A stretch of DNA of 57,245 nt, counting the filler, from Basidioascus undulatus (taxonomy: Eukaryota), in assembly GCA_000826855.1 (NCBI GenBank). It is 4 parts of 4 records of this genome, joined end to end, with 100 filler letters (N's around TTAATTAATTAA, not from the genome) between each part and the next. Parts side by side here need not be neighbours in the genome. Positions count along the whole stretch, not along the records: positions 18,553 to 47,974 come from JTLS01000129.1; 3 more parts are not named here. One strand, written 5' to 3'. The notes under the pieces were generated by a model that was not told where the DNA came from, searched no databases, and saw nothing but the letters and a program-made list of their open reading frames with translations. A program made the translations under genes and the position numbers. This document shows, one piece after another, positions 3,493 through 34,079 of this stretch. Within the stretch, counting starts at the first letter, position 1, and each line of letters begins with the position of its first letter.

Positions 3493-4242
3493 TCAGTTGT
3501 CGCCATCGTTGTTGTCGCTGTTCTCTTCCCCCCGTTGGCCATTGTTGCCCTCGTCGTCGTTGCTCTCCTTCTTGTCGCCCTCCTTGTCATCACCATTCTT
3601 CTTGTCTTTCTTCTTTTTATCGACCTTCTTCTTGCCATTGTTCTCGTCATCGTCCTGTTTGGCTCGAGTCAGGACCAACCCGAACTTCCCTATCAAGGAA
3701 GGGCCTCAACTGCACCTTCTTCTCGTCCTTCTTTTCCTCCTTCTTCTTCTTCGGCTTCTCAATGTACTTGATCACCTCCACCTGTTTCTCCACGATCTTC
3801 TCCTTGATCACCGGCTTCTCGACGATCTTGTACACCGGCTTTTCGACGATTTTCACGACCTCCTTGGGCTTCTTCTGCGAGTCGTCTCAGTTTACATCAG
3901 CCTATGAATAAGTAAGGGGACATGAAAATCCAACGTGCCTTGTGCTCGACCTTCTTAGGCTTGTGCTCGACCTTCTTACGCTTGTGCTCTATCTTCTTAC
4001 GCTTGTGCTCGACCTTCTTGACATGGTGCTTCGGCCGGTAGTGCTAAGAATTGCACCCACAATGTCAACCACTGTGCACACTTGCAGCTGCATCGCAAAC
4101 TTACCTCTTTTTTATGATGCTCGCCCTTATGTCCGTCCCTCGGCACCAGCTGCGCAGTCCCGGTGTGGAAGCCAGGCAGCGCAGCGGCGAGGGCGGTGCT
4201 GGCGGAGAGGGAGAGGACGGAGAGGACGAGGGCGGTACGCAT
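3493..4242 (-). CDS. Secreted Lys/His-rich repeat protein, copy 2 (187 aa, 4 exons)
   Basis: Exons 4105-4242, 3939-4043, 3716-3874 and 3493-3654, all phase 0. Signal peptide, then KKVEHK repeats, KIVEKPVYKIVEKPVIKEKIVEKQVEVIKYIEKP, and a D/E/K/N-rich tail. Intron 2 has a GC donor. Confidence 0.8.
3939..4022 (-). repeat. Four 21-bp coding tandem repeats (KKVEHK[R/P])
   Basis: Unit cttgtgctc(gac/tat)cttctta(g/c)g repeated on the + strand. Confidence 0.85.
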
Positions 4243-5261
4243 TGCTGAATAGTGTAAGTGAGAGGAGATAGGGGTCTGTGAAGGGGCTGATGCTGGTCTG
4301 TTGGGATGGAGAGCGGGGGTTATATCTCGCTTTCGAAGCAGTCCGCGCAGCGAGAGAGCAGCGAGCAGCGGCCGCTGCGCGGCATTACGCGTACTACTGG
4401 AGGATACTGCCAAGCACCCACAGCGCCTGTTGAAGTTTCAACTGGCAGGTAGTTTGCCTTTTCATGGCTTCCCGAGACCAATAAGTTCTGTTCGCGAGCG
4501 AAAGCATAGGCGCAGGGAAGCTGCAGCTGCGCAAAGTCCAAGGTCAAGCTGGGAGGCTCCCGTCCTCCTGCGATTCCACCATGCTTTGCAGCCGTAGTTT
4601 CAATCTAATACTGGGTGATCTACCTTCGAGTCTCCAAGCATACCAGCCATAGTCCTGCGCCAAGGTCCAATACCCCAGCCCCGACATCCACGATCGCTCA
4701 TCCCCTTCTCTATCCCTCATCCCCTCGGCGCCCCCCGTCCCGCCGTCAGCCTCTTCCCAGATGCGACAGACGCCTCCCTGAACGTCCACATCAAGCCAGC
4801 ACGCAGGTTTTGTGTGTGTGTAGGCGGTACATGCATATGCAGTAGCAGCGATGATATGACAATGAAGTGCGGATGGTACAGCAGCGTTGGAGCCAGAGCC
4901 AAAGAAAACAAGAAAAAGTGCGGAGCCACACGGGAAACGCGAAGAAAGGAAGAGAGAGATGTGTAGCGAGAGCAAATGCCCAACCAGAAGATTGGGGAAG
5001 GAGCGAAGGAGGGAGGGGTGCGGTTTGGGAAGAGAGGAGGGTGGGCGGTGAGGAGGGTGGAGAGGCAGGATGGGGATGAGGGAGGAGGATCGTATGAGGA
5101 GGTGGAAGGAGGGAATTAGACACAGGTTACGAAATGGAGGAGGGTATCGCTGGGTGTTATTATCTACGTGAATAAGGTCGGGCGTATTACGACTTGATAT
5201 GAGGAACACATAGTTTCGGAGCAGGGGATCGAGAAGAACGCAAGGTACACATCCGCTCATC

Positions 5262-6841
5262 CTAAAACCTCCCCTTATCCCCCTGCCCCTGGGCGCTCAA
5301 GCTCGGGCTCGTAGCGGGTGTCTCCCTGTCCGCCCTCTCTCTTCCCACGCCCAAGTCCCCCTCGTCCTCCTCATCGCTCCGTGCACTAACCGTCGTGCTC
5401 GGCGTGCTCCCCGCCGCAGGCGGCGGCGCAGCGAGCTGGGGCGGGGGGAAGACGAACGGTCTCGGGGGAGTCTTCGAGTCCTGTGCCGCGGCTGCCAGGC
5501 GGCTTTCCGTGTCGCCGCCCGGAGCCGTTCCGGACGTGCGGCGGAGGTTGTGCGGCGCGCGGGGGAGGAATGGAGCTCCCGGGTGTGCGTTCGCGGTCGT
5601 GGGGCTCTCGGGTGGGAGGTCGTCGAGCGCGAAGTCCGAGTCAGCCGCGGCGCTCCACACGCGTCTGTGCCCGAAGGACGCGGTGGCTGGTGTGGGGAGT
5701 TTCTCGCGTCCGAGGCTCGCGAGAGATGGGAGGGCGGAGGGGTCGCGGAGATGGGACGGGAGGAGGACGTAAAATGTGGCGGTCGCGAGGCACCCGCCCG
5801 CGACGGCGTCGACGAGGTAGTGGTGTGAGAGGTACATCGTCGCCCAGTAGAGCAAGGCGGTGTACCCCCAGTACAGCGCCCGGAAGCGCGGGAAGAAGTG
5901 CGAGAGGAACAAAGCCTCGATCGTTGCGCAGCCGGCGTGCAGGGAGGGGAAGGCACCGAAGACCATGGGAGAGGCACCGAAGGTAGAGGTGTACCCGTGC
6001 GAGTGGAAAAGCTCATCGATCCGCGCGAGACCGGCGGGGGAACCCGGGATCGAGTAGGACGCGGGCGTCAGGCCGTACAGGAGCTCGTACCCTGGAGGAG
6101 CGGAGGAGGGAGGATGAGCACACTGGGCGAGGACGCAAGGGAGAGGAGCGGGAGGGGAAGGAGGAAGTGGAGGAACTCACAAGGCGGAGCGCAAGGGAAC
6201 GCGATCTGAACAAGCACGCCGATGATGTTCATCCATCCAAAGCACCTCGCCCAGAACGCAAGCGCGCTCTCGCTCCTCCACTCGTTCGCGTCCCGCCCGC
6301 CCTTCGCGGGTGCCCACACCCACGCGGCGGCCGCAATCACGAACGGCACCACAAAGTGGACCAGTCCATACGGGAACCAGGCGAGGACGTCGAGGACCCA
6401 GTGCCGGTAGCGGGTGAGAATGTCCGAGATGTTGGCGCCGTACCAGACGCTCTCGAGCGTGGGGAGGATGGTGACGTTGATTGTGGGGCGGAGGGCAGTG
6501 GGGATGAAGCGGGAGGAGTAGAAGAGGAGGACCCAGGCGAGGATGGGTGTGCCCGGGAGGAAGAACTGGGACGTTGCGGGGAGGAGGAGGAGGAGCGTGT
6601 AGAGCGCGGGGAGCGCGAGCTTGAGCGGGAAAGGCGGTGCGGTCATGAAGTACAGGCACGGGAGAGCGATGAGCAGGAAACACAGGTACTGCGCGTCCCG
6701 CCGCCGCCAGCGATGTCGGCGCAGGCGGGAGAGGGACGCAGAGGAGGAGAGCGAGAGGTCGAGCGCGGAGAAGGCAGATTGCAGGTCGGCGGCGAGGGGA
6801 CGCAGGAAGGGAGGCACCCGCGGACCGAGTATTCGCACCAT
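5262..6841 (-). CDS. AUR1: Inositol phosphorylceramide synthase (aureobasidin A target, PAP2 superfamily)
   Basis: Two exons, intron 6092-6180. Motifs LPTLESVWYGANISDIL, WFPYGLVHF, FPCAPP|WYELLYG, GSPAGLARID, FGAFPSLH, YLSHHYLVD. Confidence 0.95.
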
Positions 6842-9178: not shown

Positions 9179-9278
9179 NNNNNNNNNNNNNNNNNNNNNN
9201 NNNNNNNNNNNNNNNNNNNNNNTTAATTAATTAANNNNNNNNNNNNNNNNNNNNNNNNNNNNNNNNNNNNNNNNNNNN
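9179..9278. other. Artificial contig spacer
   Basis: 44 N + TTAATTAATTAA (stops in all six frames, 9223-9234) + 44 N. Confidence 0.99.
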
Positions 9279-9655
9279 ACGATTGAAGTACTCCTGCGCA
9301 TCGTCGGGTCGGTCAAGCTGTTGGTAACGTTAATGCTGAGGGTGTCGCCCTTGTTGGCGGCTATCAGCGTCCCGGGGAAGATGCCGTTGACGACCGTGGC
9401 GGAACGGGGGAAGCCATCGGCAGAAATCACGGCATTGCCGATGTCGAGGCTGTATTCGCGGACCATGCCTGAGTGACTACCGGGAGGCGCTACATTTCCG
9501 CCGTTTGAGGGAACGCGTTTTGGGCCCTTGGGGTAAACTCTGCCGTCCACGTGGTCGTAGGGATGATGAGCGCCATGCCGGTGAGTTGAGCACGCGACGA
9601 TAGCGGAGAGTGCAAGGAGAGCAGAGAGCGTGAAGCTTGTATGTAAGAGGCGCAT
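9279..9655 (-). CDS. Laccase (AA1 multicopper oxidase), first exon only
   Basis: Signal peptide, then DGFPRSATVVNGIFPGTLIAANKGDTLSINVTNSLTDPTMRRSTSI followed by GT, immediately before the expected HWHG copper motif. Confidence 0.9.
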
Positions 9656-9733
9656 AGCTGGCTTGGAAAAGAGTGTGAAGCTCGAAGAGAACAGGGATGA
9701 CAGTTGGAGGAAAGCATGCTTGAAGACCAGACC

Positions 9734-9740
9734 TTTTATA
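9734..9740 (-). promoter_or_regulatory. Putative TATA box of the laccase gene
   Basis: TATAAAA on the minus strand about 80 bp upstream of the ATG. Confidence 0.55.
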
Positions 9741-10808
9741 TGTTGGCTGACCCACCAAACCTTTTATGACAACACAGCGGTTTCCCCTGGTCCCGCTTCA
9801 AAGAAATGTGAAATGGACCGGGCAGGCGTTGTGCGTATATCTCGCCAGTGCAGGGCTATTTAAAGGCAAAGGGAGTATGCAGGGGCGTCTTCTCCAGCAA
9901 TCAGGACCATGGGATGGGAGATACAATGGACCGTTGTCAATCACATGGCCCCGTCAACAGATAAAGCCAAAGTGGAAGGGCAGGAAAAAGCAGCCGCCAG
10001 TAGCTGAAGGCGCGCTCATGGACGCGCAGTAGCTCAGCTGGGCCATCCGCGGGTTTGAGGAAGAGTTCATGGGAATGTCGAGGGTGTGTTGGCTTTGAAT
10101 GTTATTTATCTGCGAAGTTTAGAGCATGCGATAGGGACACCTTAAGTTTGAAGCGCCTGCTCGCGTTGACAGCTGGGTTCGAGTTATCAAAACGACAGAT
10201 TGTGTGGGACCACCTACATACTGTGGAGGTTCGTTGTGTCCTTCGAAGCTCTATCTAGCCTTCAAGTCACTTTAAGGATGGGAGTGTGTTCCTGAGTCCA
10301 TGGACATGCGGCATGCGTACCAACAGTACTTCGAGAGGCAATAGATTGCACCGGCCGTCTGTTCGTTGGTTCCTGGTCCCCTCTTTCTTTTCCACTGTGA
10401 GATTGGATCTCCGCGTATATGTATCTTTTAAACTCAGAAGCTGCGTAGTTATCAAGGTGCTACGCTCCAAAAAGAGCCAAGTCCTATCTTCTCTGCCTGC
10501 CATCTCACTCTTGCGAAGAACCGCTCAGCTGCTCGTGGTGGACGGAAGACACTTCGTCCGCACAGAGTCCAGGATGGAGCACTTGCGTATAAGAGCTTAG
10601 AGCGAGAACATCGTGTATACCTAGTGTTGTTTGAAGACAGCATTACGCTCATAGAGTGTTATAGCAGATCCAGCATGCATCGTCAATGTGCGCGGGGTAC
10701 TGACGTGAGCCATAACGGGAAAAGGGAACAGACCCGGGGGCTTAAACTCTTTCAGAACGCCAGAAGAGAAGGAAGAATTTGCGATAAATATAGATTGCGA
10801 GGGTTTTA

Positions 10809-13624: not shown

Positions 13625-15721
13625 ATGTCCAACAAAGTCCCGGAAGTTGGCAAGGCTGCTGTCTGCGTTGTGAGCTTTTCGTCAAGCTCTGTCCGCGGTT
13701 CAACACCACGTTGCTCACCCGGTTGCCTGTGTATTCGCTTCAGAACCGTGGCCTCAACTACCACATCGAATGCAAGGAGGACTATCCCGTCCCCAAGCCG
13801 GGCCGCGGCGAGCTGCTGCTTCGACTGAACGTGACCGGCTTGTGCATGTCTGACGTTCGTGCGTGTCACTCCGCTACTTTCCGAACCGCGGGCACTTACA
13901 GACTCTAAGGTGGTACACAGACTTCATGAAGGGTGGGAACATGTGGGGTCAGTAAAACTGCTGGCTCTCTGTTCTGACGCCCCATTTCCATCTCTTTAGG
14001 CGACTGGGGCGTCGGCATGCAACCTGGTGTCGATTGTGCTGGACACGAAGGCGCGGGGGTGGTTGTTGCTTTGGGGGACGGCGTCGACTCAGAGAAGTGG
14101 AAGATCGGGGATCGTGCGGGTCTGAAGCCGCTTTACGACACCTGGTGCGTGACATCACGAATCCATTCAAATGCGGTCCATAATGATTGATTTTCATGTA
14201 TTCACAGTGGAGAATGCGACCTGTGCCGGGGTGGTGTACGCCGATCTGAAGCGGTTAGGTACAGAAGGCTCACGACGCTTGTCTTTCTATAGAAGGAAAC
14301 TCATTGTGACAAGGCGCCCTTCACCGGCGCTTTCGCACAAGGTAGGCAGAGCCCATTGCTCAAGCTTGTCAAGCCTGACCCATTCAGTCATGCTCATCAA
14401 GCTTTTCTATGAATGGTTTCAGGATCCTATTGTCAAGTGAAGAAATTCTAGCATCGAGATTAGACCCTGGGACACAGCTGAACATCCCAACACACAGTAT
14501 GTTCTTTCGCCGGCGCGCTACACCTCCCGCATCCCGGAAGGGGTGCCGGACGAGATCGCTGGTCCCATCAGTAATTTTTTGCCTACGATACTTTAACAAT
14601 TATTAAACTCACCCACTACTTGAGCAGTGTGCAGCGGTGCAACCACCTACGCCGCTCTGAAGGCTTCCGGCGCTCGTGCCGGTCAATGGTGAGCGGACAG
14701 ACGCTTTGCCACCATCATCGCCTTTCCGGCCGCTGAAAGCTAGCGACAGGGTCGTCATTCCGGGCGGCGGAGGTGGTGTCGGCCACATGGTAAATCCTTT
14801 CATCCTGGACGAAAAGACACGTTCCTCATGCTCTCTTTACAGGCCGTCCAATACGCCGCCGCGATGGGGATGCGCGTCATTGCTATCGATACGGGCGACA
14901 ACAAGAAGCAGATGTGCAAAGCGCTAGGTGCGTGTGTTATCGTCAAAGGTCATTTGAATGGATCCTAACAAGCCTCAACCGGGCCTAAAGGTGCCGAGGC
15001 CTTCGTGGACTTCGCGACCTCTGAAAACGTGCGCGACGAAATCATCAAGATTACCGGCGGTGGCGCACACGCAGTTGTTAGTATTATCTATTGTGTTATC
15101 TATACGCCAATTTCTCACCGTCGGGATGTGACTCCCCTGACCAGATTGTCACTGGTGGCACTGGGAAAGCATACGAAGGTGCGCATGCCCTGCTTCGGAA
15201 GGCGGGTACGATGGTCTGCGTTGGTCTGGTGCGTTCCTCTGAGCGTTTTTACCTATGGAAAAGACTTAAAAAAATCACGGTCAGCCGACCCGTGGGACCG
15301 CATTTGCCGGAGGCGACCCCTTCGATTTGTGCTTCTCGAACATCAAGATCGTCGGCTCCCTAGTTGGAGGCATGGACGACGTGGACGAGGCGCTGCGGTT
15401 CGCTGCGCGTGGACTGATCAAGCCCAAGTGAGGGTTTTTTTTTTTTCTTTCTATTTTCATGAACTCAACAAGCTCTGACCTAACTGTCAACTCCTAAACA
15501 GGATCACCACTGTAAGTTCGGGGTGAACTGGTGACAGACGCTGCCAATGCTGATTGACGCGGGTCTCGTGCCTCGCAGTACTCGTTCAAGGAGCTGCCCG
15601 ACGCTGTTAAGCTTCTCGTACGTCCGAAGACTGTTCATCTCTAACTTGTTTGCTGATGTCCCTGTTTTCCCAGACCGAGAGCAAGATTGCCGGGCGCGCC
15701 GTCGTGTACTTTGACAAGTGA
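13625..15721 (+). CDS. Zinc-dependent medium-chain alcohol dehydrogenase, about 17 exons
   Basis: Spliced motifs [17 protein letters not shown], structural-zinc C|GECDLC...[11 protein letters not shown] Rossmann loop, and C-terminal [11 protein letters not shown]. Confidence 0.93.
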
Positions 15722-18552: not shown

Positions 18553-20343
18553 GCCAGCTCTTCAAATCCCTCACATCCACCCCAGACCATTTCAATCTTT
18601 CCCTTCCCCGTGGACTAAGAAGCCCGGCGAAGACGCACCGGACAGAAACCATTCCCCCGTACGCGAACCCGCCCTCGCGTGCGATGCGCTCCTCAGGCCA
18701 GTCCTCCCTCGCCCGCGCGCTGAGCTGTGTCCACGCGAGGGCGTTGCGCGGGTGGGTCGACAGGCCCGGGTAGACGACATTCACTACCCACCCGCGCTGG
18801 ACGCCGATGGTTGAGAGGACGCGTGCGAGCCGGAGCGCGTTGAGGCCGTGCTCCCGTGCGCGGAGATCTGCTCACCACCACCGGTTGACATATGGTTAGA
18901 AACAGTTCGCCGGGCAGGGAAGGGGGAGAGGGACTGAAAGTGGAAGGGGAAAGGAAAGGGACGGACGCAGCGTCTTCGCACCCCGCTGGGCGAGCCAGCA
19001 GTCGAACGGGCTCGGGACAGCGCCGATCGCGTTCTGGAGGAAGCGGAGCTTGTCCGCGAGCGCGGGAGTGTTGGTTATCGCCGCGCCCATGATGACCTGC
19101 ATTCATCGCGCGCGTGGGTCAGTCGCCTGGCCGACACAGGGAGCGGGGCGAACGGAAGGGGCGCACGTCGGAATGCCCGTTGATGTATTTGGAGCTGCGA
19201 CGGAAAAGTTTGCGTGAGAGACAGAAGGCGTGAGTGGAGGATGCGGAGGTGCGAGGCGAGACCCACAGGGAGTGAACGACAATGTCCGCCCCGAGCAGGA
19301 GAGGGTTCTGGTAGTACGGCGAGAGGCTGACCAGTCGCCCTGGCACATCAGCAACAACCCTCTCATTTCTTCAAACTCTGTATCCAGACACGGACGCACA
19401 AGGTGTTGTCAACAACGACGACCGCCCCGCGCGCGTGCGCTGTGTCCGCGACGGCCTGGACGTCAATCAAACGCAGCGTCGGGTTCGTGGGTGTTTCTAT
19501 CCAAACGATCTGAACCGCGCCGGCCTTGAAGGTTCAGCTTTGAGAGAATGAGAAAGAAATAGGAAGGGAGTAGCGCACCTTCGTGTCCTTCTCCCAGTAC
19601 GAGTCGAGCTTCTCCATGCCCTCGAACACCCTCTCCAGATCAACAAACGTCGTCCGCACGCCCGCAACGGCCTCTGCGACCCTCTTGAGGTACCTGTGCG
19701 CACAATTCCAGCTTTTTATCAACTCAAAATCCTCCCCTGCAAGCGCAAGGGACGCCTACCTGTAGGTCCCGCCGTAAACGTCATTGACGCTGAGGACGTG
19801 CCCGCCCCCTTGAAGCGTGTTCAAGATGGTCGCCGTCGCAGCCGAGCCGCTCGAGAAGGCGAGCGCGTACGTCCCGCCTTCGAGGGACGCGAGCTGCGCC
19901 TCGAGCGCGGAGCGGTTGGGGTTGTCGGAGCGCGAGTACTCGAAGCCCTGTCCGTCCCGAAACCATCTTCAGCGCACACGAACAAGGGGCTGGAGGCGGA
20001 TGGTGCAGGAAGACCTTGTGGTTCCCCACCCCTGCCTGCGCGTACGTTGTCGAGAGCGAGATGGACGGGATGACGGCTGCGGTTTCGGTGCTCGGTTCGG
20101 AGCCCTGCGTGCGGCGGTCGGAGCAACGTGAGCGGCGACCCCTGCCATTAGCGGGAGCGAAGACGCACGACGTGAATCGCCCGGGTACCAAACCGCTGTT
20201 CATCCCAACGCCACGGCCCACCCTCAGTTCTCGCATCGGAGGTGGTGAGGAGCGAAAGCTGGTCTTACGTCCGATACCTGCTGCTTGGCCGCCTGCGCCC
20301 GGTCATTCGCAGCCGCAACGCCGTTAGTAGTCGGGATCGTCAT
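18553..20343 (-). CDS. CYS3: Cystathionine gamma-lyase (Cys/Met metabolism PLP enzyme), 3' truncated
   Basis: Spliced motifs FGTRAIHV|GSEP, ISLSTTY, FEYSRSDNPNR, AFSSGSAAT, DVYGGTY, WIETPTNP, VVDNT, PLP-lysine SSKYINGHSD, PFDCWLAQRG, YGGMVS. Confidence 0.93.
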
Positions 20344-21960: not shown

Positions 21961-23153
21961 ATGCCCTTCGCCTTGACGCCGTCGAACGTTACCCGCGGCG
22001 GGCGTGGTCCTGTGGGTTTCACGTGTGTCTTGCGATTCTCGTATCTCCTTTGTTGGACCTCCAACTGACCTTCCTTGCATGTCCCGTTTGTACTCACAGA
22101 GGACCTAGTACCCCTCCTCCCTCTCCACCGCCATCGCCTTCTCCGAAGCCCAAGACTCGCTCAGCCCTCTCTAGTTCGCTCGCTCGTTTCCGCCAGAAGT
22201 CCACCCCATGGCTGCGCCGTCAATTCAGCTCCGACGCTCCTTCCCTCTCGCCCTCCCCGGTCCCCATCTCTCCCCGTTCATCTTCCCTCGTCGACACCGC
22301 CCCCACCAGTCCCGTGTGGGAGTGGTACGCTGCAACGGGCGACGAACCGACTTTCGAGGTTGTCCATCCTTCGAATGCTGCACCCCCTCCACTGCGCCTC
22401 AGCATCTCTCCTTTCGACACATCCTTTCTGGCCAATTCGCTACCCTCACCTCCACCCACACCTTCCTTCCCACCTCCGCTTCCCCTCCCTGCGCTGCCCG
22501 CCTCCTCCGCACCGCGCACGCCTGTCCGCCCCAGCAGGCACCTCGACCAGCCCTCGCTCCCTCCGCGACGCCCTTCGAAGCGCAGCCGCTCACCACATGT
22601 CACATTCGCAACCTCCTCCTCCCCAACGCTCCCTCCCACCGAGTGTTACGACCCGACCATGCACTTCCCTCCCCTGTCGCCGCTGGTCGACTCGGACTCG
22701 GATTCGGATCTCGACCCCGACATGCTCGATCTATCTGAGCTCTTCTTCTGCGACCCTGCGCTCCCTCCTTCCCGGCCGCTGTCGCCAGCTCGAGCCGAGT
22801 CGTTTATCTTCCCGCGCCCGCCGCCGCACTCGACGCTGTCGTCCCGCGCCTCTTCCTCCTCCCTCTCCTCCTCCTATTCCTCATCCACCTTCGACTGCTC
22901 CCGCTATACCAAAACCATCACCTCCTCTTGCGCGGAGCCCGGGATCCCCTCTCCGTCGCCCTCCCCGTCCTCCTCGCGCTTTCGCAATCGCTGCCAGCCG
23001 TCGCCGGTGCCTGTGCCTCCGCGGTCGAGCAGCTTGCAGGGCACGCGCGCACAGGCGGCGCTGGAGGAGCTGCAGAGGCGTCAGCGGATGGCGAACAGGT
23101 TCGCCAGCGCTGATGCAGCTGTGCACTATGTGGTGAACGGGGAACACATCTAG
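21961..23153 (+). CDS. Pro/Ser-rich low-complexity hypothetical protein
   Basis: ATG 21961, intron 22023-22099 (GT...CTGAC...CAG) splices in frame into the long 21807-23153 ORF. Confidence 0.7.
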
Positions 23154-23494
23154 ACTCGGGGAGGTGTAATTCCGAAAGGGCGAGGAAGAGAGCTTCGCTC
23201 GCTCGTTATCTCGGTTGTTGTCTGGAACTTAATATTGTCTGACCCCTCGAGGCTGTATTTTCTTATTCCCTTTCGACCCTGACTTGAATTGGTGCGCATC
23301 TCCTAGAGCGCTTCACAGTCCGTTGCGCTCTGGACGTTGCATCGCAGCTAAAAGTTTTCATCACGATGGAATGTTTTACACCTTCCTTGCAGCTAGAGAG
23401 GCGAATGGCTCTGAGTTAAAAAGGCTGCGCTTCGACATCCGGAATACACCATCTCCGAAAGGTCATGTATCCATCTTGGCTAAAATTATTTCCT

Positions 23495-24538
23495 CTAGTG
23501 GTCCGTGCGCCGGACAACGTCGCGGTTCAGGTCTTTTTTGGACACAAAGGGGATGCCGCTCAGCTGGAGGGTGAGGTCAAGCTCGCCGAGCAACGCTGCG
23601 GCTGTCTGGTCTGTCAGACCTTGACACGGCGCACGTGCAAGGATGGAAATGTCCAAGACTTACAGCGCAAGACATGCTTGGTTCCCCCGCCGCCAATAGC
23701 AAGACCGTACACATACGGACGGCCCACTAGTACAGCCTGCAGATGTGAATGGAAATCAGCAAGACAAGGGTTTCTGCCTTTGCGACGCACATCAGCTCCT
23801 AGGGCGAGCGCCTTGGCAATGTCGGAGCCATTACGGAATCCAGAATCAGATACTGGAAGATGAAAGTCAGTGTACGGTAGGTCTACCTGGAAACGCCAAA
23901 GGCACGGATGTCGAGCCTGCCGCCGACTGCGTCTGCGATATCTAGCAACATGTCAAGCGATGCAACCGAGCCATCAACTTGACGCCCGCCAACTGAAAGG
24001 GGAGACACATCTTTTCAGTGTAATTCTCAACAAAAGGCGACCTTGGCAACGTACGATTCGAGACGATGATTCCCTGTACGCCAATCTCCACTGCCTTCTT
24101 CGCTTCTGGCACGTTTTGAATGCCCTTCAGTACGATTGGGCCTGGGGTTGGGGGATCAGAAGCACATAACAAACAATTGTCAGGGTTCATGTTCCCGTAC
24201 CGTCCCAGTGCTTCTGTAAGAACGCGACCCCTCCCACGAGTGACCGAATCCTGCCAAACCTTGGTCAGCCAACGCCGACGTGCCAACATCGATCGGACGC
24301 ACCAGGGAAAATTGTGTGCGCCCACTCGGCTGCAGCTCGCCGAAGGTATTCTCCTACTTCTTTCCCGGTCTCACGCTTGAAGTTGAGGCAACGCAAGGCG
24401 TACTCCTCCTTGTGAAGTGAAGCGGGGCTTCACGCCCTTCTCCAAATCATTCTGATACACTTCATTCTGGTAGTCTGAAGGCTTCGTTCGTGTTGCTTGG
24501 TCTTCGTTTGGTAGTTTCAGCCAACTTCGGTGTCCCAT
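23495..24538 (-). pseudogene. FMN-dependent alpha-hydroxy acid oxidase, lactate 2-monooxygenase-like, degenerate
   Basis: Motifs YQNEVY, GHSWE, HWDG|PIVLKGIQ, IVSN[L]GGRQVDG, DSGFRNGSDIAKALALGA, GRPYVYGLA. Lesions: large internal deletion, -1 frameshift at ~24230, and catalytic His codon read as CTT (Leu). Confidence 0.85.
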
Positions 24539-25191
24539 GATGTAAAGCAATGGGACGCACTGACCGGAACAGTCATGACTGCTGTAGGTGATGGGCGAGC
24601 GCGGATGAGGTGAATGGACGTTCAACGCTGGAGCGGTTGCGAATGAGGCCTCGTTATGCAGATGGAAACCGTTCCGGTACAAGAAGTAGCATTTCTCGTG
24701 TGTGAGGTGGAGAGCGGTGGAGCCAGCTTCGTCCTCAAAAAAGCGATCGCCCTCGTCATCGGTCATCATGCAGCTCACGGCCGTCAGTGTCCACTGTCCT
24801 GAGATTATCGGTTTCGTCGGTACCGCATACATGTACTGAATGATACTCATTAATACAGCTTCTACACTGATACTGGCTGACAGCCAACACATACGCTGGC
24901 CAAAGTCTGACACGGTTGCGTACATGCAAAGAAAACGCAGTTCCCGTAACGCCCACGAGCATTGCAATTAGAACGTGCTCATGCTTCCGGATGCCAGGTG
25001 TGTCGTTGTTGGAAGGCAAAGAAAGACGCGAGTTGACATCTTTATAAAAAAATCCTATTCTTTCATCGCGACTGCTCCTCTTCCACAGGCAAGCGGTCAC
25101 AATTCACTGTTTGCGTGCGCGCTGCAGTGCAAGTTGTGCACCCTCGAAACATCACACAGTGAAAAGAATTGACGAAACGGTCTCAAAGTAC

Positions 25192-27422
25192 TCATGCAAT
25201 AATCTGTAATCCAGCCGTACGCCGCCGCTCTCCAGCACCATGCCGGCCCTGCCGTGCGTCCCCCCCTTCTCGAGCACGCTCGCGGGGTTGGAAACCCGCG
25301 GCACTGGGCTTGGTGTACATCTTGGCCTCTTCGTCGCCTTCCCAAATGACGTAAGGCTTCTCCTTCGGCGGCTTCGGGACAAGGAGTTTGTACGTGAGGC
25401 AATGGTGGACGGTCATCGCGCTGTTTATAAGCCAAGCGCAAAACACGAAGAAGAGCCCGATCATATGGATCACTCTAGGGCGACGGAACTAACTCAACAA
25501 TGACCCCAGCTTGGCCGTAAAGGGATTCGGAGTGCACTCACAAAAATGTTTTCGAGGGCAACATTTGACCAAGACGAGCGGACGCCATGAAGAATCCCGT
25601 GAGCTGAAGAAGAAACGCGCTCGGTTAGCGCTCACCCACGAAGCTGGAAGGCCGTTTTCTGGCGGGTTTCAAATACAGGGAATGTAAAACTCCACCAGCC
25701 CATTGACCACTCGATCTTTCGGTCCAGGGCGATAGACGTCACAAACAGTAGCAGCGGGGTGAACAGCAGCCAGACCGACATGCCCTACGGAATGCACCTG
25801 GGGTAGTTAACACATGTACTTGTCGTATTAGAACCTCGTGAATGATGACACGCACCCAGAGAATGAGAGCGAACCAAACGGAGACGTATTTGAAGACAGC
25901 TGCTCCTTGCTCGCCGCTCAGGATGCCCGCAGCAGGAAAAGCTCGTCCAGCCGCTGACCCAAGTCCAAGGAACGCGAACGCGGTAAACCCGGATGGACCG
26001 ACGGCCATCAGAAGACCGGGCAGCGAGCCTTGCGAAGGATTCGGATTGGTCATCAAGCGCCCCATCCAAACCGACAACCTGCGCAACCTGCGTAAGCGCT
26101 GTGAGATCAATAGGAGTCATGTCCGCACGTACTTTAATAGAGACATCATGAAGCCCATGCCCTGAGTAATGTACGAAAGGATTATCACGTAGCCCGCTTG
26201 CTGCGCGGGCAGCGTTGGAGCGAGCGCGGATCCTAGAGTCCCAGCAACTGTGGACCGGTGATTATACGGCATCGATACAACAGCGTCAGCTCCCATGGGA
26301 AACAGGTAAACAGTGTACAAGGGGATGACTCAACGCATCAAGGGGAAGACGGGTAGCAGGTCAGCAGGAGTTATAGTCGCGATGGAGCGGAGACGGCCGC
26401 GACTGAATAACCATGATGGGGTTGGTGAGCAATCGAACAGAGCTGAATTCAAAGAGATATATGGCTTCGTACACGGTCCATTGCAGAAGCATTCCGACAA
26501 CCAAGCCTGCTGCGATCTTTGGAATCAGGCGGCGTAAGCGAAAGCAATGCCAAGCGAGAAGAGAAGACCCTAAGCCACGAACGTCTGCATATTAAAAGCC
26601 ACGACCGATGTCCCTTTGGTTAATTAGAGTGCCCTTGATTGCGGTATCAATCAAGACGACGAACGTACAAATGAACCAGACGACATACATCGCCCGAGTG
26701 AGCCAAAAGCCGCAGTACGGCACGCCGTAATCGATCACGCCTGAGGGAGGATATATTATTTCAAATATGGGGAGGGACTGGTCCGGACTGCCGCTGTATA
26801 GGGGCTCGGTTGCACGCTTACAGACGAAAAGCGTAGCGAATGCCAGGTTCACGCACGGCAGCTGCGCAGTAATGAGTGAACGCGTCATTCTCGCGAAGCC
26901 GATAGACCTTGAAACATAACAACATACATAAATACCGTCCTCGTGATTAAAGAGGCTGGCTTTGAACGCCTGTGGATGGAAAACGGCCCGTGACAAAATG
27001 CCGCAGACGTTGACCTGCGGATGGCCGTCAGCCTGCTACCAAATCGCATGAAGTGGGAGGGGCTCACCACAAAGAGGACGAGGTCAATGAAGAAGAATAT
27101 TGTGCCCAGTTCCCGCTGTCCCTTGAACTTGAAGGGACACCCGCCGATAAGAATGCCGACCGCTCCGGTACCCATGTTCGCCGTGAAAAAGCTGGCCACG
27201 GCACCGGCAGTAGCCCATGATGAGCGGAAAGCGATGGGAAGGATGGTAGACGGCTTACTTCCACGTCCAATACTCGCTCCTGGCTATCCATCCGCGTGGT
27301 TGTCGCCCAGCATCCTGTTGTCCCTTCTCCGCACTCCCCTGCTTCTCCCTTTCGTGCTTCTGGGCCGCCTTTGATACTGGAGAACATGAGCGACTGCGCG
27401 TTTGATTGGAGCGCATAGTCAT
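25192..27422 (-). CDS. SLAC1/TDT-family C4-dicarboxylate (malate) transporter, similar to S. pombe Mae1
   Basis: Spliced WTWN|FFTANMGTGAVGILIGGCPFKFKG..LGTIFFFIDLVLF, HPQAFKASLFNHEDG, LLPVFPLM, QGMGF, PGLLMAVGPSGFTA, and multiple hydrophobic helices. Confidence 0.9.
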
Positions 27423-28050
27423 AATCGTGTGAAGTGAACGCTGTGCGGTGGGGGAAGGCTGCAGAAGCGCGACAATGGGAATGTCGTAGAACTCACTTCG
27501 AGGACCACGGCGCATCGATCGCGAACTTCTTGGCTACAGAAACGCTCCAATACCACCTTGTCGTTCCAACTCTACAGCATAATATTCAGTCGCTGAAAGA
27601 GTTCGGAACCGCTGACGTCGCTACCTTATCCACAGTCCGGGGCAGGGGTGGCCGCCACAACGCCGCCGCCTTTACTTCATTGCTCTGCCGCTCTCCGCCT
27701 GTCCTTCCGCTCTTCGCCGCGTCCTACGAGCTCTTTGGTCATATCCTTATGCAGTCTGTCAGTCAAGATAGAACAGTTCTGCCCGGGTACCTCGCGCCAC
27801 ACTCCTGGCGGCGGGCCTCGACCTCGAAGCGTCATTCATTCGCATATCTCTTCGCCATGCTGTGAGCGAGCGCTCCATCCGCTCCTTCATGGGCCGAGAT
27901 GTTCTCCTTTCCCTTTCGACATCATTACAAGCCCAAAATATTATTCACCACATCTGTTTGTTTGTTTTTCACCTACCACTGGCCACTCGACGTTGCTCAT
28001 TCGCATTGACTCAAACTAATTAGCCCTCGTTTCGATCGCGCTTCACATTC
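27423..28050. promoter_or_regulatory. Shared divergent promoter region between transporter and malic-family enzyme
   Basis: 628 bp between two outward-facing ATGs. Confidence 0.6.
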
Positions 28051-30896
28051 ATGCCTATCAAGCCTGAGCGTTCCTTCCGCTCAAACGAGCCCGTGAAGAC
28101 GCACCTCAAAGGCGCTGCACTTCTGCAAGACCCGATGGTAAACAAGGTGAGTATTGGCCGTCTACAACAACCTCTCGCACTTGGCTGAACCAGTCTCGCT
28201 CGCAGGGTTCGGCATTCACCCGCCAGGAGCGCAAGCAGTTCGACCTCGAAGCTCACCTTCCCTACGAGTAAAGGACGTTTGCTTTGTTGCGAGGGCGGTA
28301 CTGAATGTCGCTCAACCCAGGGTCCACCCCATCGAGTATCAACTCGAACGCGCCAAGGCACAACTGGACGATCAGGTAATACCAGCTCGCTTAGGCTTGA
28401 GATATTGTCTAGAATTACGAGCTTATATTCCGCGCGCCTGCAGCCCAACGATGTATTGAAGCACGCTTTCCTTGTGTCTCTGCGCGAGCAAAACCTCGTT
28501 CTGTTTTACCGCCTTGTGCTCGAAAATGTGGGTATTCTACCTTTCGCCCCCATCATATCACATCTCATTCTGCTAACCGCCGATTCCCCATTGCAGTTGA
28601 AGCAGCTTCTTCCCATCCTGTATACTCCCACAGTGAGCGCGGCTGTCAAGAAGTGGAGCCAGCTGTTCCGGCGTCCAGTTCGTTGCTTTTTCTAAACGCT
28701 TGCGCGGCAGATGCTTACCGGGGTTTTTTTGCACGGATGTCCAGGAGGGCGCATATATTTCGTATCCCCACTTTGAACCGTCAGACCCGAAGACTATTGA
28801 GCGCCTCCTCGCGACGCATGCTCCTCCGCCCGGGATCGAAGAGGGCAAGCGGCCGTTTGATCTGGTCGTCGTCACCGACGCGGAACAGATTCTGGGCATC
28901 GGAGACCAGGGTGTAGGAGGTGCGTATGCCATCAAATCTTCGAACATCTATGACTTACCCGTCGTCTAGGCATGTCAATCTCTGAGGGAAAAGCGGCATT
29001 GTATACGCTCGGCGCCGGTATTGTCAGCGAAGCGTTCTCTGATGAACCCGTTCCCAGAAGACATTTGTTGACATGAAGCTTCATGGATAGGATCCCGCTC
29101 GAATCCTGAGTGTTCAGCTGGACGTCGGCACCGACAACAAAGAGTGGGTCGACGATCGTTGTATTTCCACCATGCCTTTACCGACGCTCAGCTAATCCTT
29201 TCGTTGCAACAGTCACCTGAACAGTGCGTATTTCTCGTCTGCTCCGTGGATAAAATTACTTGCTAAACTTTAGATTGTAGACAAACTCTACCTCGGTTGG
29301 AAGCACGAGGTGAGAAGGCTTCCATCACGTTGAGCGAGCTCGGGCTGAGGACGACTCCTGGCGTGACAGTGTGTTCGAGGCGATGATTACGATGCATTTG
29401 TCGACGCGTTCGTCAAGGGGGCCCAATCGCTGTGGCCCGGTGTCCTCATTCATTTCGAAGAGTACATACGTTTACCACTACAAGTATCGGAGACATAAAG
29501 CTGACGCTTCCTACAGTTTCGGCCGCGAGAACGCTGCCCGCCTTCTCGTACGCTCATCAAGCTTCGCTTAAGAAACGCCGGTTTCGAGTCTGAATTATCC
29601 ACTCAACCCTTTCCAGGACAAGTACCGCAAGGACATCCCGGTCTTCAATGACGACGTCCAAGGCACGGGTTGCGTCGTCTTAGCGACGCTTCTTGCGGCA
29701 ATGGGCTCGCAGAAAAGCAAGCTCGCAGACCAGAAGTACCTCATCTACGGCGGCGGTACTGCCGGAACCGGTATCGCTGACTGGAGTGCGTAGTCTGTCA
29801 CAGCGTAGTGCACAGGATGCTGACAGTGGGAAATTTACAGTTACCCGTGCCATGGTTCAGCTGGACGGTGTCAAGGAGGAAGATGCCAAGAAGCAGATCT
29901 GGTACGTCGACGGCCAGACATACCGTATGTTGACGCTTTTATGGCTTCTGAACATATGGGTCGCGGACTTCAGGCTGGTCGATCAGCAGGGCCTGTTGAC
30001 GACCTCGACGCCCGATGTCGTCGAGCATCAGAAGCCTTACCTCCGCTCGGCCGACGAGGTCAAGGGCTGGTCTTCCAACGGCGACAAGATCGATCTGTTC
30101 GATGCGGTCAAAAGCGCGAAGCCAACCGTGCTCATCGGCACCAGCGGGCAAGCTTCCTCGTGGGACAAAAAGTTGGTGAAGACAGTGCTCGCAGGATTAG
30201 AGGTCGATCAGCGGCCGATTTTCGTGAGACTTGATTCCATATTCTTTATTACTCTGAATCAGTCGATTCCTAACTCGTCTTTGTTCTGTAGATGCCTCTG
30301 AGCAACCCGACGAAGCTGGAGGAGGCGACGCCGGGTAAGCTTCTGCCTTGCGTGTGATGATGCGAACTCAACTTGAACCCTGTATGACGGAACCTTTCAC
30401 AGACAATCTCATCGACTGGACCGACGGACGCGCTCTTGTTGCGACCGGTTCGCCCTTCCCGCCCGTCAAGCACCCGAAGTCGGGCAAAGAGATTGAGATT
30501 GGCGAGGCCAACGTGCGTACTTCCTGCATGCCTCATGCTTACCGTCCTCTATTCACATGTAGAAAATAACAGAACGCGATGGTCTTCCCTGCGCTTGGGT
30601 TTGGTACCATTCTGGCGGGCGCAGAACGGCTGTCCGACTCGCTCATGCTTGCCGGAATCCGAACGCTCGCGAATGTATCGCCCGCGCACAACGACCCCGG
30701 GAACGGCGCGCTTCTTCCCGACCTGAGCCAGGTCCGCGAGGTCAGCGTCAAGATCGCTTCGGCCGTCGTCGCGCAGGCTGTGAAGGACAAGGTCGCGCGG
30801 CGGAAAGACATTCCGGACAACGACGAGGAGCGGGAGGACTGGACAAGGCGGGCGATGTGGGTCCCGGAGTATCGTCCTCTCGAGTATCTCCAGTGA
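28051..30896 (+). CDS. Malic enzyme family oxidoreductase/decarboxylase (NAD-type, malolactic-like motifs), about 18 exons, no mitochondrial presequence
   Basis: Spliced NK|GSAFT, ILYTPTV (catalytic Tyr), VVTDAEQILGIGDQG, ISEGK (catalytic Lys), HFEDFG, FNDDVQGTG, YGGGTAG, PLSNPT, ATGSPF, EAN|NAMVFP, MWVPEY. Confidence 0.95.
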
Positions 30897-31394: not shown

Positions 31395-34079
31395 TCAGAA
31401 GCGGAGACTGCCGCTGTTGCCCGATGACGACGAGGACGTGGTCGTCTGGATCGTAGTCGAGCAGTGGTTGTTTGCGTTCGAGGGGATGCAGCTGAGGTAG
31501 ACACACCACGAGCAGCCGGAGGAAGGGTCTGCGTTTCACGAGATGCCACCGCCCATTGTTCGTCAGTACCCCACGGAACAACCGAGAGAGAGGATACCGA
31601 AGGAGAGGGCGGAAAAGGGGAAGAAAACCTACCGTCCTTTTCGAAGTTTTTGGCGAGGACGATGAAGAGCACGATGGACACTACGAGCGCGGCGATACGG
31701 CAGATCCAGAGGATCGTCGTGTGCCTGTTTAGTCCCCCGAGCCAGCGTCAGACCATGCGGGAGAGTAAGGGGAGGATAACAGGAAGAAGTAATCGCCGCG
31801 GGACAGGGAGAATGAGAACGAGCGACGCACCGCTTCGACTGCGTGATCACAGGGAGGAGCACGACGCTGAGCAAGAAGCCCTGGACCCATCCGCCGATGT
31901 GCGCAAAGTTGTCTGCGGACCCATTATCAAGTTCAGCTCCTCATTTTTTTCATTCTTCTTGAAGACGTTGTGCGTACCGAGGTAGGGGATGAGGCCCATG
32001 GCGAACTGAGAAAGGCAGCACGCGCGTCAGCGAGAAGGCCGGATGGGGCTGGGATGCCAAGGCGGGGTTGCGGGATAAAGAACGGGGCCGAATCAAGAAT
32101 CAAGAATACATGGGAAGGGGACCACGCACGATGAACACCAACTCGACGAGATGGATGATGAGCATCCTCCCCGGGTTGCGCTCGAGCCGCCAGTGCGCTA
32201 CGAGGTCGACGAGGTTGACGGCGATCGTGCCCACTGTGGGCGAGGGCCGGGAATTAGCGTTAATTGCGGTCAGTAGGCGAGGGAAGGACAGCAAGGAGGG
32301 GACGTAGAGGGGAACACGCACTGATAGCGCCCGACGCGCCCGTAGACGGTGTGTTCATAGCCGAGAAGTTACCGCCTGCACATCACACACCATCCCCAGG
32401 TCAGCCACCGCGCGGTGGCGAGAACAGAAGAGCGCAGCGCAACCGAGGATGTTCCCAAAGACCCCGGCGCAGGTGTACAAGACGGCCTGCGCAGTCATCG
32501 CGGTTTAAACATCAGCATTCGAAACCACTCCGAGCGGAGTTCTGGGGGACGCACGAATCCGAATGTGCCCATCATCTGCGACCACCGTCCGATCAAGGTC
32601 CACGACTTCGGGGAAGATAGACAGAAAAGATCTACGCACCCGTTCCGCTTGAGCGCTAACTACGAGCAGGCCAAGCATATTAAGGACGAGATGGAGAATC
32701 CCAGCATGCAAGACTGCGCTCCCCGAAGCCCACGGCCGTCCATCTCAGCCTCCAACCCTCTCGCTTGTTGTAAAGGAAAGAGAAGAGTGCGACCACTTAC
32801 AAACAGGCAAGATGAACCTCCACCTCTGCGCCGGCTTCTCGCCCTCCTGCATCCCGAACCCGCACACAGTCGCGAGCGTCGAGTTGCTCGCTGTACCGCG
32901 CGAGTCGTGGATGTCGGGCCAGATGGAGGCGGTCAGGGGCGAGGGGATGCCTTCGACTGGCACCGTCGTCATGCAGGGCCGGTACCGCGCGCCGGTGCGG
33001 ATTAGGTTGGCGGGTGTCTGGAGGGTGAAGGTAGGAGGTCAGTATTCGGGCTCGGGCAAGAGAGAGAAGGGATAAGACGGACCGGTCCGCCCATTGGGTT
33101 TAGGGAACCGGGTGCGAAGGGCGAGCCCGTGTTGTTCTTGTTTTGGACGATCTCGATGATGAGCGCTATGCAGCAGCCGACGGCGACTGGTGAGTCGGGG
33201 GTGACCGAAGGCGGTGCAAGGTGAGCAGGAGAGAACGGGAGTAATTGGTATTTAGGTGGGAAGGTACACACTGGCCCAGGTCAGAATCGGAAATCTCTGC
33301 CTAAAGATTCCCCGCCTGCTCTCCTACCACTTGCATCAGCTCCGCTCGCCGCCCTCTCCCTCTTCAACCCAAGCTTACCTCCGGTTCTCGATCTGCTGTT
33401 CGACCGGGTACTTCCCCTTGTCCGCCGTAAACGGGACCATACCCCTCCACCCCTGCTGGCCCCACGCATTCCCGAACGCGCGGTTCTCGTTGAACGGCTC
33501 CCCGCCATGGGGCGGCGGGAGGGGCGCGCCCGCCTCTGCGTAGTCGAGGTTCGCGCGCGGCTTGTGAGACGAGTAGTCATCGTACGCGGGGTAGGCTGAG
33601 GGCGTGGTCGCATCCCAGGGGTCGTGTGGGGTGTACGTCCCCGCGGGTGGGGCGGCGTAGGAGGTCAGGGGCGCGTCGTAGGCTGATGTGGGCGGGGAGT
33701 GGGAGGAGGGGTAGGGGTAGGTGTGGGCGTTAGGGGATGCAGATGTGTACGGCGCGTGCACGTTGGACGCCGAGTCGTGTGGAGCGAGCGTGCGCGAGTC
33801 GTCGTACAGGTCTGCGAATGTGGGGTGCTGCTGCTGGGGCTGCTGTGAACCCGCTCTTCAGCTTCCACCAAAGGAGAGGCACCATCGAAAGAATGGACGC
33901 ACATATCCGTATCCCCCGTATCCCGCATCTACGTCCCCGCCGCCTCCTGCTGCTGGCCCTGGAGGACCACCAAGATGGCTGCCTGCCGGCGGCGAGAATG
34001 GCGGGTCGTGCTGGCCGAGCGTGTCCTGCCTCTGCGGAAGCGAGTGGGCGCTGTACGGTGTGTAGGCCGGGTACGTCAT
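31395..34079 (-). CDS. Rhomboid-family intramembrane serine protease
   Basis: Pro/Tyr-rich N-terminus; NPMGGP, GARYRPCM, CGFG, QRWRFILP, HAGILH, catalytic GASG and DNFAHIGG; ends WCRYLSCIP...LRF*. Confidence 0.9.

Follow-up and report, generated by a model that had tools for sequence, protein, structure and literature searches.

A SLAC1/TDT-family channel gene and a malic-family enzyme gene, both intact, lie head to head in the genome of Basidioascus undulatus (assembly GCA_000826855.1), with 628 bp between their start codons (ATG), and a decayed oxidase-like gene lies beside the channel gene. All three genes are real, and together they form a block (23495-30896) in the stretch of DNA that we analysed (57,245 nucleotides; hereafter the window). 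We interpret the block as a clustered unit of the S. pombe type, in which malate would enter and pyruvate, CO2 and NADH would be produced, and we consider the chances of this interpretation to be about even. It builds on the observed gene structures, the splicing, the family memberships, the exclusion of the enzyme from the malolactic clade and the decay of the third gene; malate as the substrate, import as the direction, a cytosolic location, a preference for NAD and co-regulation are predicted. The channel would admit L-malate or a similar C4 dicarboxylate to the cell, and the product of the divergent gene, a probably cytosolic malic enzyme of the NAD type, would convert malate to pyruvate, CO2 and NADH. 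Pyruvate and NADH would feed central metabolism and the acid would be removed. An alpha-hydroxy-acid oxidase gene, now dead, formerly lay downstream of the channel gene. The unit would be small and lineage-restricted, and would serve organic-acid utilisation in a Microbotryomycetes-like basidiomycete yeast.

Table 1. Features of the block, with positions counted along the window.
Feature	Position	Strand	Description and evidence
FMN-dependent alpha-hydroxy-acid oxidase pseudogene (LMO-like)	23495..24538 (about)	-	Pfam FMN_dh, tblastn, piece scores
Catalytic His codon, split by an intron	23991..24055	-	Read as Leu across a 62-nt intron
Frameshift of one base in a run of G (remnant)	24228..24231	-	Two frames hold halves of one exon
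LMO-like N-terminal motif (reference residues 6-16) and deletion junction	24390..24478	-	Shuffle test, piece scores
SLAC1/TDT-family channel gene	25192..27422	-	13 exons, 463 aa, intact; gene model, Pfam SLAC1, relatives, X3
2-nt microexon of the channel gene	26583..26584	-	Flanked by introns of 84 and 66 nt; X3 joint letters
Divergent intergenic region, 628 bp	27423..28050	.	From gene models; X3 leaders of 28 nt (upstream of the enzyme ATG) and 26 nt (channel)
Malic-family enzyme gene	28051..30896	+	18 exons, 592 aa, intact; gene model, Pfam, X3 joints
11-nt microexon of the enzyme gene	29213..29223	+	Predicted; letters between X3 joint sides 29143/29281

The gene models bear out the arrangement proposed in an earlier sequence-only reading of this DNA, namely a divergent pair of channel and malic-family genes 628 bp apart, a co-oriented decayed gene about 650 bp past the permease stop (the remnant, of the FMN_dh family, begins 653 bp beyond it) and densely spaced introns (8.6 and 9.6 per kb of coding sequence in the two intact genes). 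The enzyme coding sequence (1779 nt) has a single terminal stop and is interrupted by 17 GT-AG introns of 50-72 nt, of which 16 are matched by joints in contigs of the spliced run X3 and the seventeenth follows from piece lengths. The channel coding sequence is 1392 nt long, and its X3 contig of 1432 nt comprises a 26-nt leader upstream of the ATG, the 1392 nt and a further 14 nt. The 2-nt microexon is needed both for an open frame and for alignment to a Phenoliferia protein (P0001), and X3 carries exactly both letters between 26516 and 26669. Runs X1-X3 are not independent (the window may derive from X1 and X2, and X2 and X3 are of one sample), and X3 consists of assembled contigs, which yield no expression levels or ranking of genes by depth. 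The genome has a second malic-family gene outside the block (X1 record 5, X2 record 7), so the copy in the block would be free to specialise.

The block had also been described as low in GC, which holds against the flanking genes (0.639 at 22001-23000 and 0.611-0.634 at 32001-34000) but not against the window (0.543 for the block and 0.559 for the window, with 25 of 57 one-kb bins below the block). GC is lower only relative to the flanking genes, and the block is therefore not a compositional island. The neighbouring genes (a Cys/Met PLP enzyme, a rhomboid, a release factor, an ABCD transporter and RXT2) are unrelated housekeeping genes, and an insensitive scan of 214 exon-sized frames in the window revealed no transcription factor families. 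The substrates of all three adjoining families are 2-hydroxy or dicarboxylic acids. Adjacency by chance has a probability of ~0.002 assuming 3 malic and 4 TDT genes per ~10,000, a post hoc figure whose gene numbers are not taken from this genome.

The assignment of the channel to the SLAC1/TDT family was confirmed by the intact gene model and by Pfam SLAC1 (PF03595), which was found in three of the five frames scanned across the gene. A structural model of its relative P0173 (pLDDT 65.6) has the all-helical SLAC1/TehA fold and matches SLAC1 (7en0, E 3.3e-06) and SLAC1/TehA structures; a PDB sequence search gave 0 matches. The channel is 61% identical over 290 aa to P0001, has orthologs in two Phenoliferia proteomes and is a member of a small fungal clade with few close relatives. 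In the Atlas, the best named clusters for P0001 are ‘malic acid transport protein’ (score 0.90; TM 0.78 by structure), the top cluster has a generic name, and no sulfite pump appears among the names of the four rows shown. SpMae1 is a SLAC1-family C4-dicarboxylate channel whose closest S. cerevisiae homolog is ScSsu1 (passages of PMC6765260), and family alone therefore leaves the substrate of the channel unfixed. Malate would be the putative substrate and import the putative direction, with sulfite as the alternative.

The sequence-only reading took the enzyme to be malolactic-like, at the head of a route from malate through lactate to acetate. The label is unsupported: phylogeny (tree and AU test), NCBIfam scores and active-site residues alike place the enzyme with NAD malic enzymes and outside the malolactic clade, and the lactate and acetate steps of the route are unsupported with it. 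Pfam malic/Malic_M was found in five of the six frames scanned across the gene, and the best full-length match is the malic enzyme of Microbotryum saponariae (SCZ92463.1; 44.7% identity). In a tree of 17 rows (LG+G4) the enzyme, on an end branch of 0.69, grouped as sister to the Microbotryum malic enzyme (support 97/97) and outside the malolactic clade (100/100), and the AU test rejected its joining a clade of five malolactic rows (p 0.000225). A quick 27-row mixture-model tree likewise placed it outside the malolactic clade. Both trees contain few fungal rows; fragments and frameshifted rows were left out of the 17-row tree, for which an unrelated N-terminal part of P0132 was trimmed. All four exon pieces scored higher with NF010052, the MaeA-type model, than with NF041582, the malolactic enzyme model (70 vs 50.6, 75 vs 43.2, 71.7 vs 68.5 and 28 vs 21.2 bits; the whole-protein cut-off of 850 bits for NF041582 is inapplicable to exon pieces). 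A control, the Staphylococcus malolactic enzyme P0139, scored 871 with NF041582 and 783 with NF010052.

The enzyme has Tyr-Thr where all four malolactic rows have Tyr-Asp, the pair (Tyr85-Asp86) proposed to bind malate in O. oeni (passages of PMC7435853), and it has Gln where the malolactic rows have Trp. The Arg of the first dinucleotide motif of E. coli MaeA is absent from the enzyme, from the malolactic rows and from the Microbotryum malic enzyme. At the columns on which the aligned references agree, the enzyme keeps Tyr, Lys and the acidic metal-ligand motifs, and it also has a Gly-rich dinucleotide motif; we take the conserved Tyr and Lys to be catalytic and the acidic motifs to be metal ligands in the malic family.

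The enzyme is 38-45% identical to all full-length relatives found and 45-52% identical to the fragments P0002, P0003, P0152 and P0153 (alignment A5), with which it apparently forms a separate small fungal clade. The best representatives among its relatives reach 53-56% identity and are fragments only, and a word-index search with one enzyme piece, which is weak evidence, found no close full-length ortholog among 324 candidates. In prokaryote genomes, 36 matches resolved into nine loci, eight of which have a frame of >400 aa that is 38-44% identical to the enzyme (L007 is too short). These bacterial relatives are no closer than the fungal match, so nothing suggests that the gene was recently acquired from bacteria. 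None of 63 matches in viral contigs was confirmed.

Columns mapped by eye place Gln in the first and Ala in the second dinucleotide region of the enzyme. Gln/Ala is found in putative mitochondrial and Leu/Ser in putative cytosolic malic enzymes of Rhodotorula (passages of PMC8074367), and cofactor determinant positions have been described for human malic enzyme (PMC3183043). The best PDB matches of the enzyme are NAD malic enzymes, and a preference for NAD is predicted. Its alignment to the Microbotryum protein (P0049) starts at residue 10 of the enzyme and residue 45 of that protein, an N-terminus ~35 aa shorter, and an in-frame stop lies 30 nt upstream of the ATG, with no upstream in-frame start. 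The enzyme is therefore without a longer N-terminus; it has no evident mitochondrial presequence and is probably cytosolic.

The third gene is dead, having suffered an internal deletion, a frameshift and the change of the catalytic His to Leu, and therefore has no part in the unit today. What is left is a short N-terminal piece joined directly to the C-terminal half, with six introns kept (by eye); reference residues ~25-213 (~190) are deleted and the frame changes at the junction. In tblastn searches with four bacterial references only the C-terminal part matched, from about residue 256 of LMO, and nothing of the middle part was found anywhere in the window. All four references have His at the split-codon position, which is the active-site base of the oxidase family (passages of PMC10153336), and an intact FMN barrel with this residue is absent from the remnant. 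No letter differences among runs X1-X3 are listed at the frameshift, and X3 depth is present over the remnant bins. The earlier label, lactate-2-monooxygenase-like, comes from a short stretch near the N-terminus, for which an annotated LMO is the best match (score 34 at residues 6-16; 2 of 500 shuffles did as well). The C-terminal exons favour none of the four alpha-hydroxy-acid oxidase references, with roughly equal scores (five pieces: 34-71 against LMO and 41-81 against two others). The C-terminal barrel motifs are 43-61% identical to bacterial members. PDB matches of the remnant N-terminus were crystallin-like and due to chance only, and the Atlas returned nothing usable for a 39-aa piece.

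Among metagenome contigs, 137 pattern matches yielded one related locus (L006), where two channel genes of this clade lie in tandem; the contig extends ~1.5 kb upstream of them, and no malic-enzyme match was found. The lengths of the longest contigs of the malic-enzyme fragments did not coincide with those of the channel relatives. Neither the locus tags nor malic or malate occur in nine supplementary files of the paper on the P. psychrophenolica genome (PMC12279972).

Malate uptake followed by decarboxylation, as first proposed, fares best in its S. pombe-like form, shorn of the lactate and acetate steps; the missing shared motif and the absence of the enzyme at L006 count against it. The same observations suit three chance neighbours in a gene-dense genome with no functional link: a divergent malic paralog, a channel for sulfite or another inorganic anion, and a dead oxidase. 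Conserved linkage was not found (the one related locus, L006, lacks the enzyme), the surrounding genes are housekeeping genes, there is no GC island, and ScSsu1 is the nearest S. cerevisiae homolog of SpMae1 (passages of PMC6765260), but three adjoining genes all from organic-acid families, the mere 628 bp between the head-to-head pair, Atlas names that favour malic acid transporters over sulfite pumps, and the rarity of both clades argue for a link. We regard chance adjacency as unlikely, though it carries real weight. It is also conceivable that the channel imported another 2-hydroxy acid, that the intact oxidase made a keto acid of it and that the malic-family enzyme decarboxylates this acid or oxaloacetate. 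The divergence of the enzyme (identity to full-length relatives and end branch), the existence of malic-family proteins that are solely oxaloacetate decarboxylases (passages of PMC8100219) and oxidase pieces that place the remnant in no single subfamily fit such a two-step route, but the enzyme retains the residues of the catalytic and metal-binding columns and the other two genes are intact beside a dead oxidase, hence do not depend on it; we find this route improbable.

A malolactic route, in which the fungal enzyme would convert malate to L-lactate and CO2 and an LMO-like enzyme would formerly have turned the lactate into acetate and CO2, draws on the N-terminal match to an annotated lactate 2-monooxygenase, and a lactate-consuming neighbour suits a lactate-making better than a pyruvate-making enzyme. 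Among malic enzymes, those of yeast and E. coli are nearer than the others to malolactic enzymes (passages of PMC7555314), and the missing MaeA Arg is common to our enzyme and the malolactic rows, but the Microbotryum malic enzyme lacks it too. The AU test, Tyr-Thr and Gln in place of Tyr-Asp and Trp, and NCBIfam scores opposite to those of the Staphylococcus control make this route very unlikely. On the phylogeny, the enzyme does not descend from bacterial malolactic enzymes, but it could have converged on them; that a small uncharacterised fungal clade independently became lactate-forming, in what was once a three-gene deacidification cluster (malate to lactate to acetate) whose other members were a SLAC1 channel and a lactate monooxygenase, has in our view a similarly slight chance. 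Literature searches found no paper describing a eukaryotic malolactic pathway. The enzyme could also run in reverse, carboxylating pyruvate to malate for export through the channel, as acidification or a redox sink. SpMae1 and AcDct export C4 acids in S. cerevisiae (passages of PMC6765260) and the malic enzyme reaction is near equilibrium (passages of PMC8100219), but characterised yeast malic enzymes are decarboxylases in vivo (passages of PMC7555314) and the window shows no sign of malate overproduction; we consider reversal very improbable indeed.

For the preferred S. pombe-type unit, the closest known counterpart is the degradation of malate in S. pombe by the permease Mae1 and the cytosolic NAD(P) malic enzyme Mae2 (passages of PMC7555314), which are of the same two protein families; the enzyme of the window has no evident presequence, and the predicted chemistry is the same. 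The window differs in its basidiomycete host, its very intron-rich genes and the extra decayed oxidase gene, and its channel is likened to Mae1 at the level of the protein family. The window pair is head to head on a common 628-bp upstream region, whereas the S. pombe genes (SPAPB8E5.03 and SPCC794.12c) presumably, by naming convention, lie on different chromosomes. A further S. pombe gene near mae2, SPCC794.06, may be a TDT transporter, for which the passages gave no confirmation. In bacterial malolactic operons a malic-family decarboxylase gene likewise adjoins a transporter gene (L001 and L004, whose enzymes are 38.7-41.7% identical to that of the window), but those transporters are of the AEC or 2-hydroxycarboxylate family rather than SLAC1/TDT, and the window enzyme lies outside their clade, without the Tyr-Asp and Trp positions. 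Fungal Mae1-type NAD malic enzymes (SCZ92463.1 and two from Rhodotorula, of 633 and 613 aa) have the same Gln-containing first dinucleotide motif, but the window enzyme is ~35 residues shorter at the N-terminus and much more divergent. The remnant shares FMN_dh and barrel motifs with FMN-dependent alpha-hydroxy-acid oxidases, but with the middle half deleted, a frameshift and the His lost.

If this interpretation is correct, the genes of a malate channel and of a malic enzyme of cytosolic type would have come to share one short upstream region in a basidiomycete yeast, in a cluster caught in the loss of its third gene. Two groups of proteins, one an uncharacterised clade of SLAC1/TDT channels and the other a divergent clade of malic enzymes, would gain a testable substrate, and new parts would become available for wine yeasts that remove malate or for engineering dicarboxylate transport. 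A lactate-forming enzyme would be a much larger result, a eukaryotic malolactic enzyme, but the evidence is against it.

The 628-bp region is a probable bidirectional promoter, from which the channel and enzyme genes may be co-regulated. No motif shared by this region and the region upstream of the remnant was above chance: 35 of 295 random pairs matched as well as a 19-nt similarity between them (24705-24723 and 27682-27700), and their shared k-mers were below the null mean. Three of the four window copies of the 9-nt core of this similarity lie within 24717-27688, a pattern noticed post hoc.

The SLAC1/TDT channel gene and the malic-family enzyme gene are head-to-head, with 628 bp between their ATGs. 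This arrangement, proposed from the sequence alone, is borne out by gene models and by splice joints in X3, one of three sequence runs (X1, X2, and X3) compared with the window. The 17 introns of the enzyme gene are all GT-AG and 50-72 nt long, and Pfam domains malic and Malic_M were found on five of the six frames scanned. A 1866-nt X3 contig has 15 listed joints corresponding to 16 of these introns, including those around an 11-nt microexon, and the 17th was deduced from the lengths of the X3 pieces. None of the joints is present in X1 or X2. The channel gene is likewise represented by a 1432-nt X3 contig, equal to the model plus a 26-nt leader and a 14-nt trailer. X3, labelled 'DNA?', was made from the sample of X2, which may itself be where the window comes from. 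X3 is most simply read as a transcript assembly, which gives neither strand nor expression level.

Features of the block and its surroundings
Feature	Position	Strand	Basis or remark
Multicopper oxidase exons	9230-9763	-	Pfam; second low-GC stretch (9-17 kb)
Zinc alcohol dehydrogenase exons	13978-14965	+	Pfam; second low-GC stretch (9-17 kb)
Cys/Met metabolism PLP-dependent enzyme	19122-19968	-	Pfam; ~3.5 kb from block
Pro/Ser-rich open frame, 448 codons	21807-23150	+	Converges on pseudogene; X3 contigs over part
FMN_dh matches (oxidase remnant)	24370-23617	-	Pfam
SLAC1/TDT channel gene, 13 exons, 463 aa	27422-25192	-	Gene model
2-nt microexon of channel gene	26584-26583	-	Required by model; X3 shows both letters between joint sides
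Malic-family enzyme gene, 18 exons, 592 aa	28051-30896	+	1779-nt open frame
Rhomboid	~32.5 kb		Pfam scan
PAP2, peptide release factor, ABCD transporter, RXT2	Window, outside block		Pfam scan

The sequence-only reading had proposed a malolactic-like cluster, with lactate or pyruvate as the product; the malolactic part is not supported. In a careful 17-row tree the enzyme paired with the malic enzyme of Microbotryum saponariae as its sister (support 97/97) and outside the malolactic clade (100/100), and forcing it into that clade was rejected by the AU test (p 0.000225). A quick mixture-model tree of 27 rows also placed it outside. In the alignment the enzyme has Tyr-Thr and Gln where all four malolactic rows have Tyr-Asp and Trp; Tyr85-Asp86 of the Oenococcus oeni malolactic enzyme is a proposed malate-binding pair (PMC7435853). 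All four exon pieces scored higher on the MaeA-type NCBIfam model (NF010052) than on the malolactic model (NF041582), the reverse of a control malolactic enzyme. All four tests (tree, AU test, active-site residues, and NCBIfam models) speak against a malolactic enzyme. It shares 44.7% identity with the fungal enzyme, against 38.7-41.7% with two proteins annotated as malolactic. No prokaryotic protein compared was closer than 44%, so a recent bacterial transfer is not indicated. The enzyme is divergent, its closest relatives being unnamed fragments with 53-56% identity, in one of which similarity ends at the site of an intron in the window gene.

The N-terminus is ~35 residues shorter than that of the Microbotryum protein, and no in-frame start lies upstream of the ATG. 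The enzyme looks like an extra NAD-type paralog, probably cytosolic. Rhodotorula species are described as having two such enzymes, 633 and 613 aa long (PMC8074367). Short matches at 29611-29630 and 30444-30475 recur with similar spacing on a contig of X1 (record 5) and X2 (record 7), which points to a second malic-family gene, carried by a separate contig of this genome. On two bacterial plasmids (L002 1547-4345 and L005 1505-4182), an 'NAD-dependent malic enzyme' is followed by an AEC-family transporter; these enzymes also lie outside the malolactic clade, and thus malic enzyme and transporter pairs recur without being malolactic.

Relatives of the channel are rare: six proteins among 8000 candidates, of which the two named are both from Phenoliferia. 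With one Phenoliferia relative (P0001) the channel shares 61% identity across 290 aa, and the predicted model of another relative (P0173) has structural matches in plant SLAC1 and in TehA. For P0001 the Atlas, whose cluster names are assigned automatically, scored a generic SLAC1 cluster at 0.95 and two 'malic acid transport' clusters at 0.90; by structure it gave a C4-dicarboxylate transporter (TM 0.78). A metagenome contig, L006, carries two paralogs from this rare clade, in tandem and in one orientation (1487-3316 and 3671-5506, + strand), whose best segments are ~55-60% identical to the window channel. Several of their introns seem to sit at positions found in the window gene too, and by eye L006 seemingly lacks both introns flanking the 2-nt microexon. 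A short match of 27237-27254 to X1 record 2 may reflect a second channel paralog, or chance.

The S. pombe genes for Mae1 and Mae2 have the ids SPAPB8E5.03 and SPCC794.12c, which by the naming convention place them on different chromosomes. Mae1 and Mae2 work like the proposed window pair (PMC7555314). The block is best read as a clustered form of this known pairing for malate use, flanked by a pseudogene, and not as a malolactic system; of the earlier interpretation the pairing stands, while the malolactic part is not supported. We give roughly even chances to a mechanism in which malate would enter the cell via the channel and the cytosolic enzyme would turn it into pyruvate, CO2, and NADH, both genes being driven from the common 628-bp region. 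The now-dead oxidase may earlier have added to this pool by making pyruvate or acetate out of lactate or a different 2-hydroxy acid.

That the genes are chance neighbours, or that the channel carries sulfite, is unlikely though worth serious weight. Three adjoining genes all belong to organic-acid families, the divergent pair is tightly spaced, and both intact genes come from rare clades and are spliced in one sample, which favours a cluster. Against it, L006, the sole related locus (one of 137 pattern matches), has two tandem channels, and no malic-enzyme match was found there, ~1.5 kb of upstream sequence being present. Phenoliferia channel orthologs were found but no close full-length enzyme ortholog, in two enzyme searches that both had blind spots, and no upstream motif common to the genes of the block rose above chance. 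The channel's family includes SpMae1 as well as the sulfite pump Ssu1 (PMC6765260). The neighbouring Cys/Met enzyme would matter only if the channel proved to be a sulfite exporter. Another substrate is improbable; true malolactic activity reached by convergence is slightly more so, and export rather than uptake of malate is the least probable. A literature search with thin coverage of subscription journals returned no description, for any fungus, of a malic enzyme-SLAC1 cluster or of a malolactic enzyme.

The third gene is dead, as had been proposed. Only the C-terminal parts of four bacterial oxidase references match the remnant, and their middle matches nowhere in the window. A short motif at 24478 resembles a protein annotated as lactate 2-monooxygenase at its residues 6-16 (2 of 500 shuffles scored as high), and <100 nt past it the remnant resembles reference residue 214 onward; therefore ~190 residues have been deleted. 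A frameshift of one base lies near 24228-24231, and the codon of the catalytic His, whose role in the family is described in PMC10153336, reads Leu. X1-X3 list no letter differences among themselves, these runs not being independent of the window. Lactate 2-monooxygenase and other oxidases fit the C-terminal exons with nearly equal scores, so the proposed identity is a lead, not a subfamily assignment. X3, which also holds spliced contigs, covers 23406-24608, so transcription of this dead gene may continue.

The window is intron-rich fungal sequence. Among named organisms, Phenoliferia and Microbotryum have the nearest relatives of these genes, so the source is probably a basidiomycete yeast of Microbotryomycetes type. 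Outside the block, 214 chosen frames of the window were scanned with Pfam; the surrounding genes proved unrelated to it, and no Pfam family matched the Pro/Ser-rich frame. The low GC noted earlier holds relative to the flanking genes only: the block has 0.543 against 0.559 for the window, and 25 of 57 1-kb bins fall below it. Third-position GC is 0.65 (channel) and 0.72 (enzyme) vs 0.79-0.97 in five housekeeping exons, small samples compared at the most GC-rich codon position, two with unchecked frames. Another low-GC stretch, with the multicopper oxidase and zinc alcohol dehydrogenase exons, lies ~9-14 kb away from the block.
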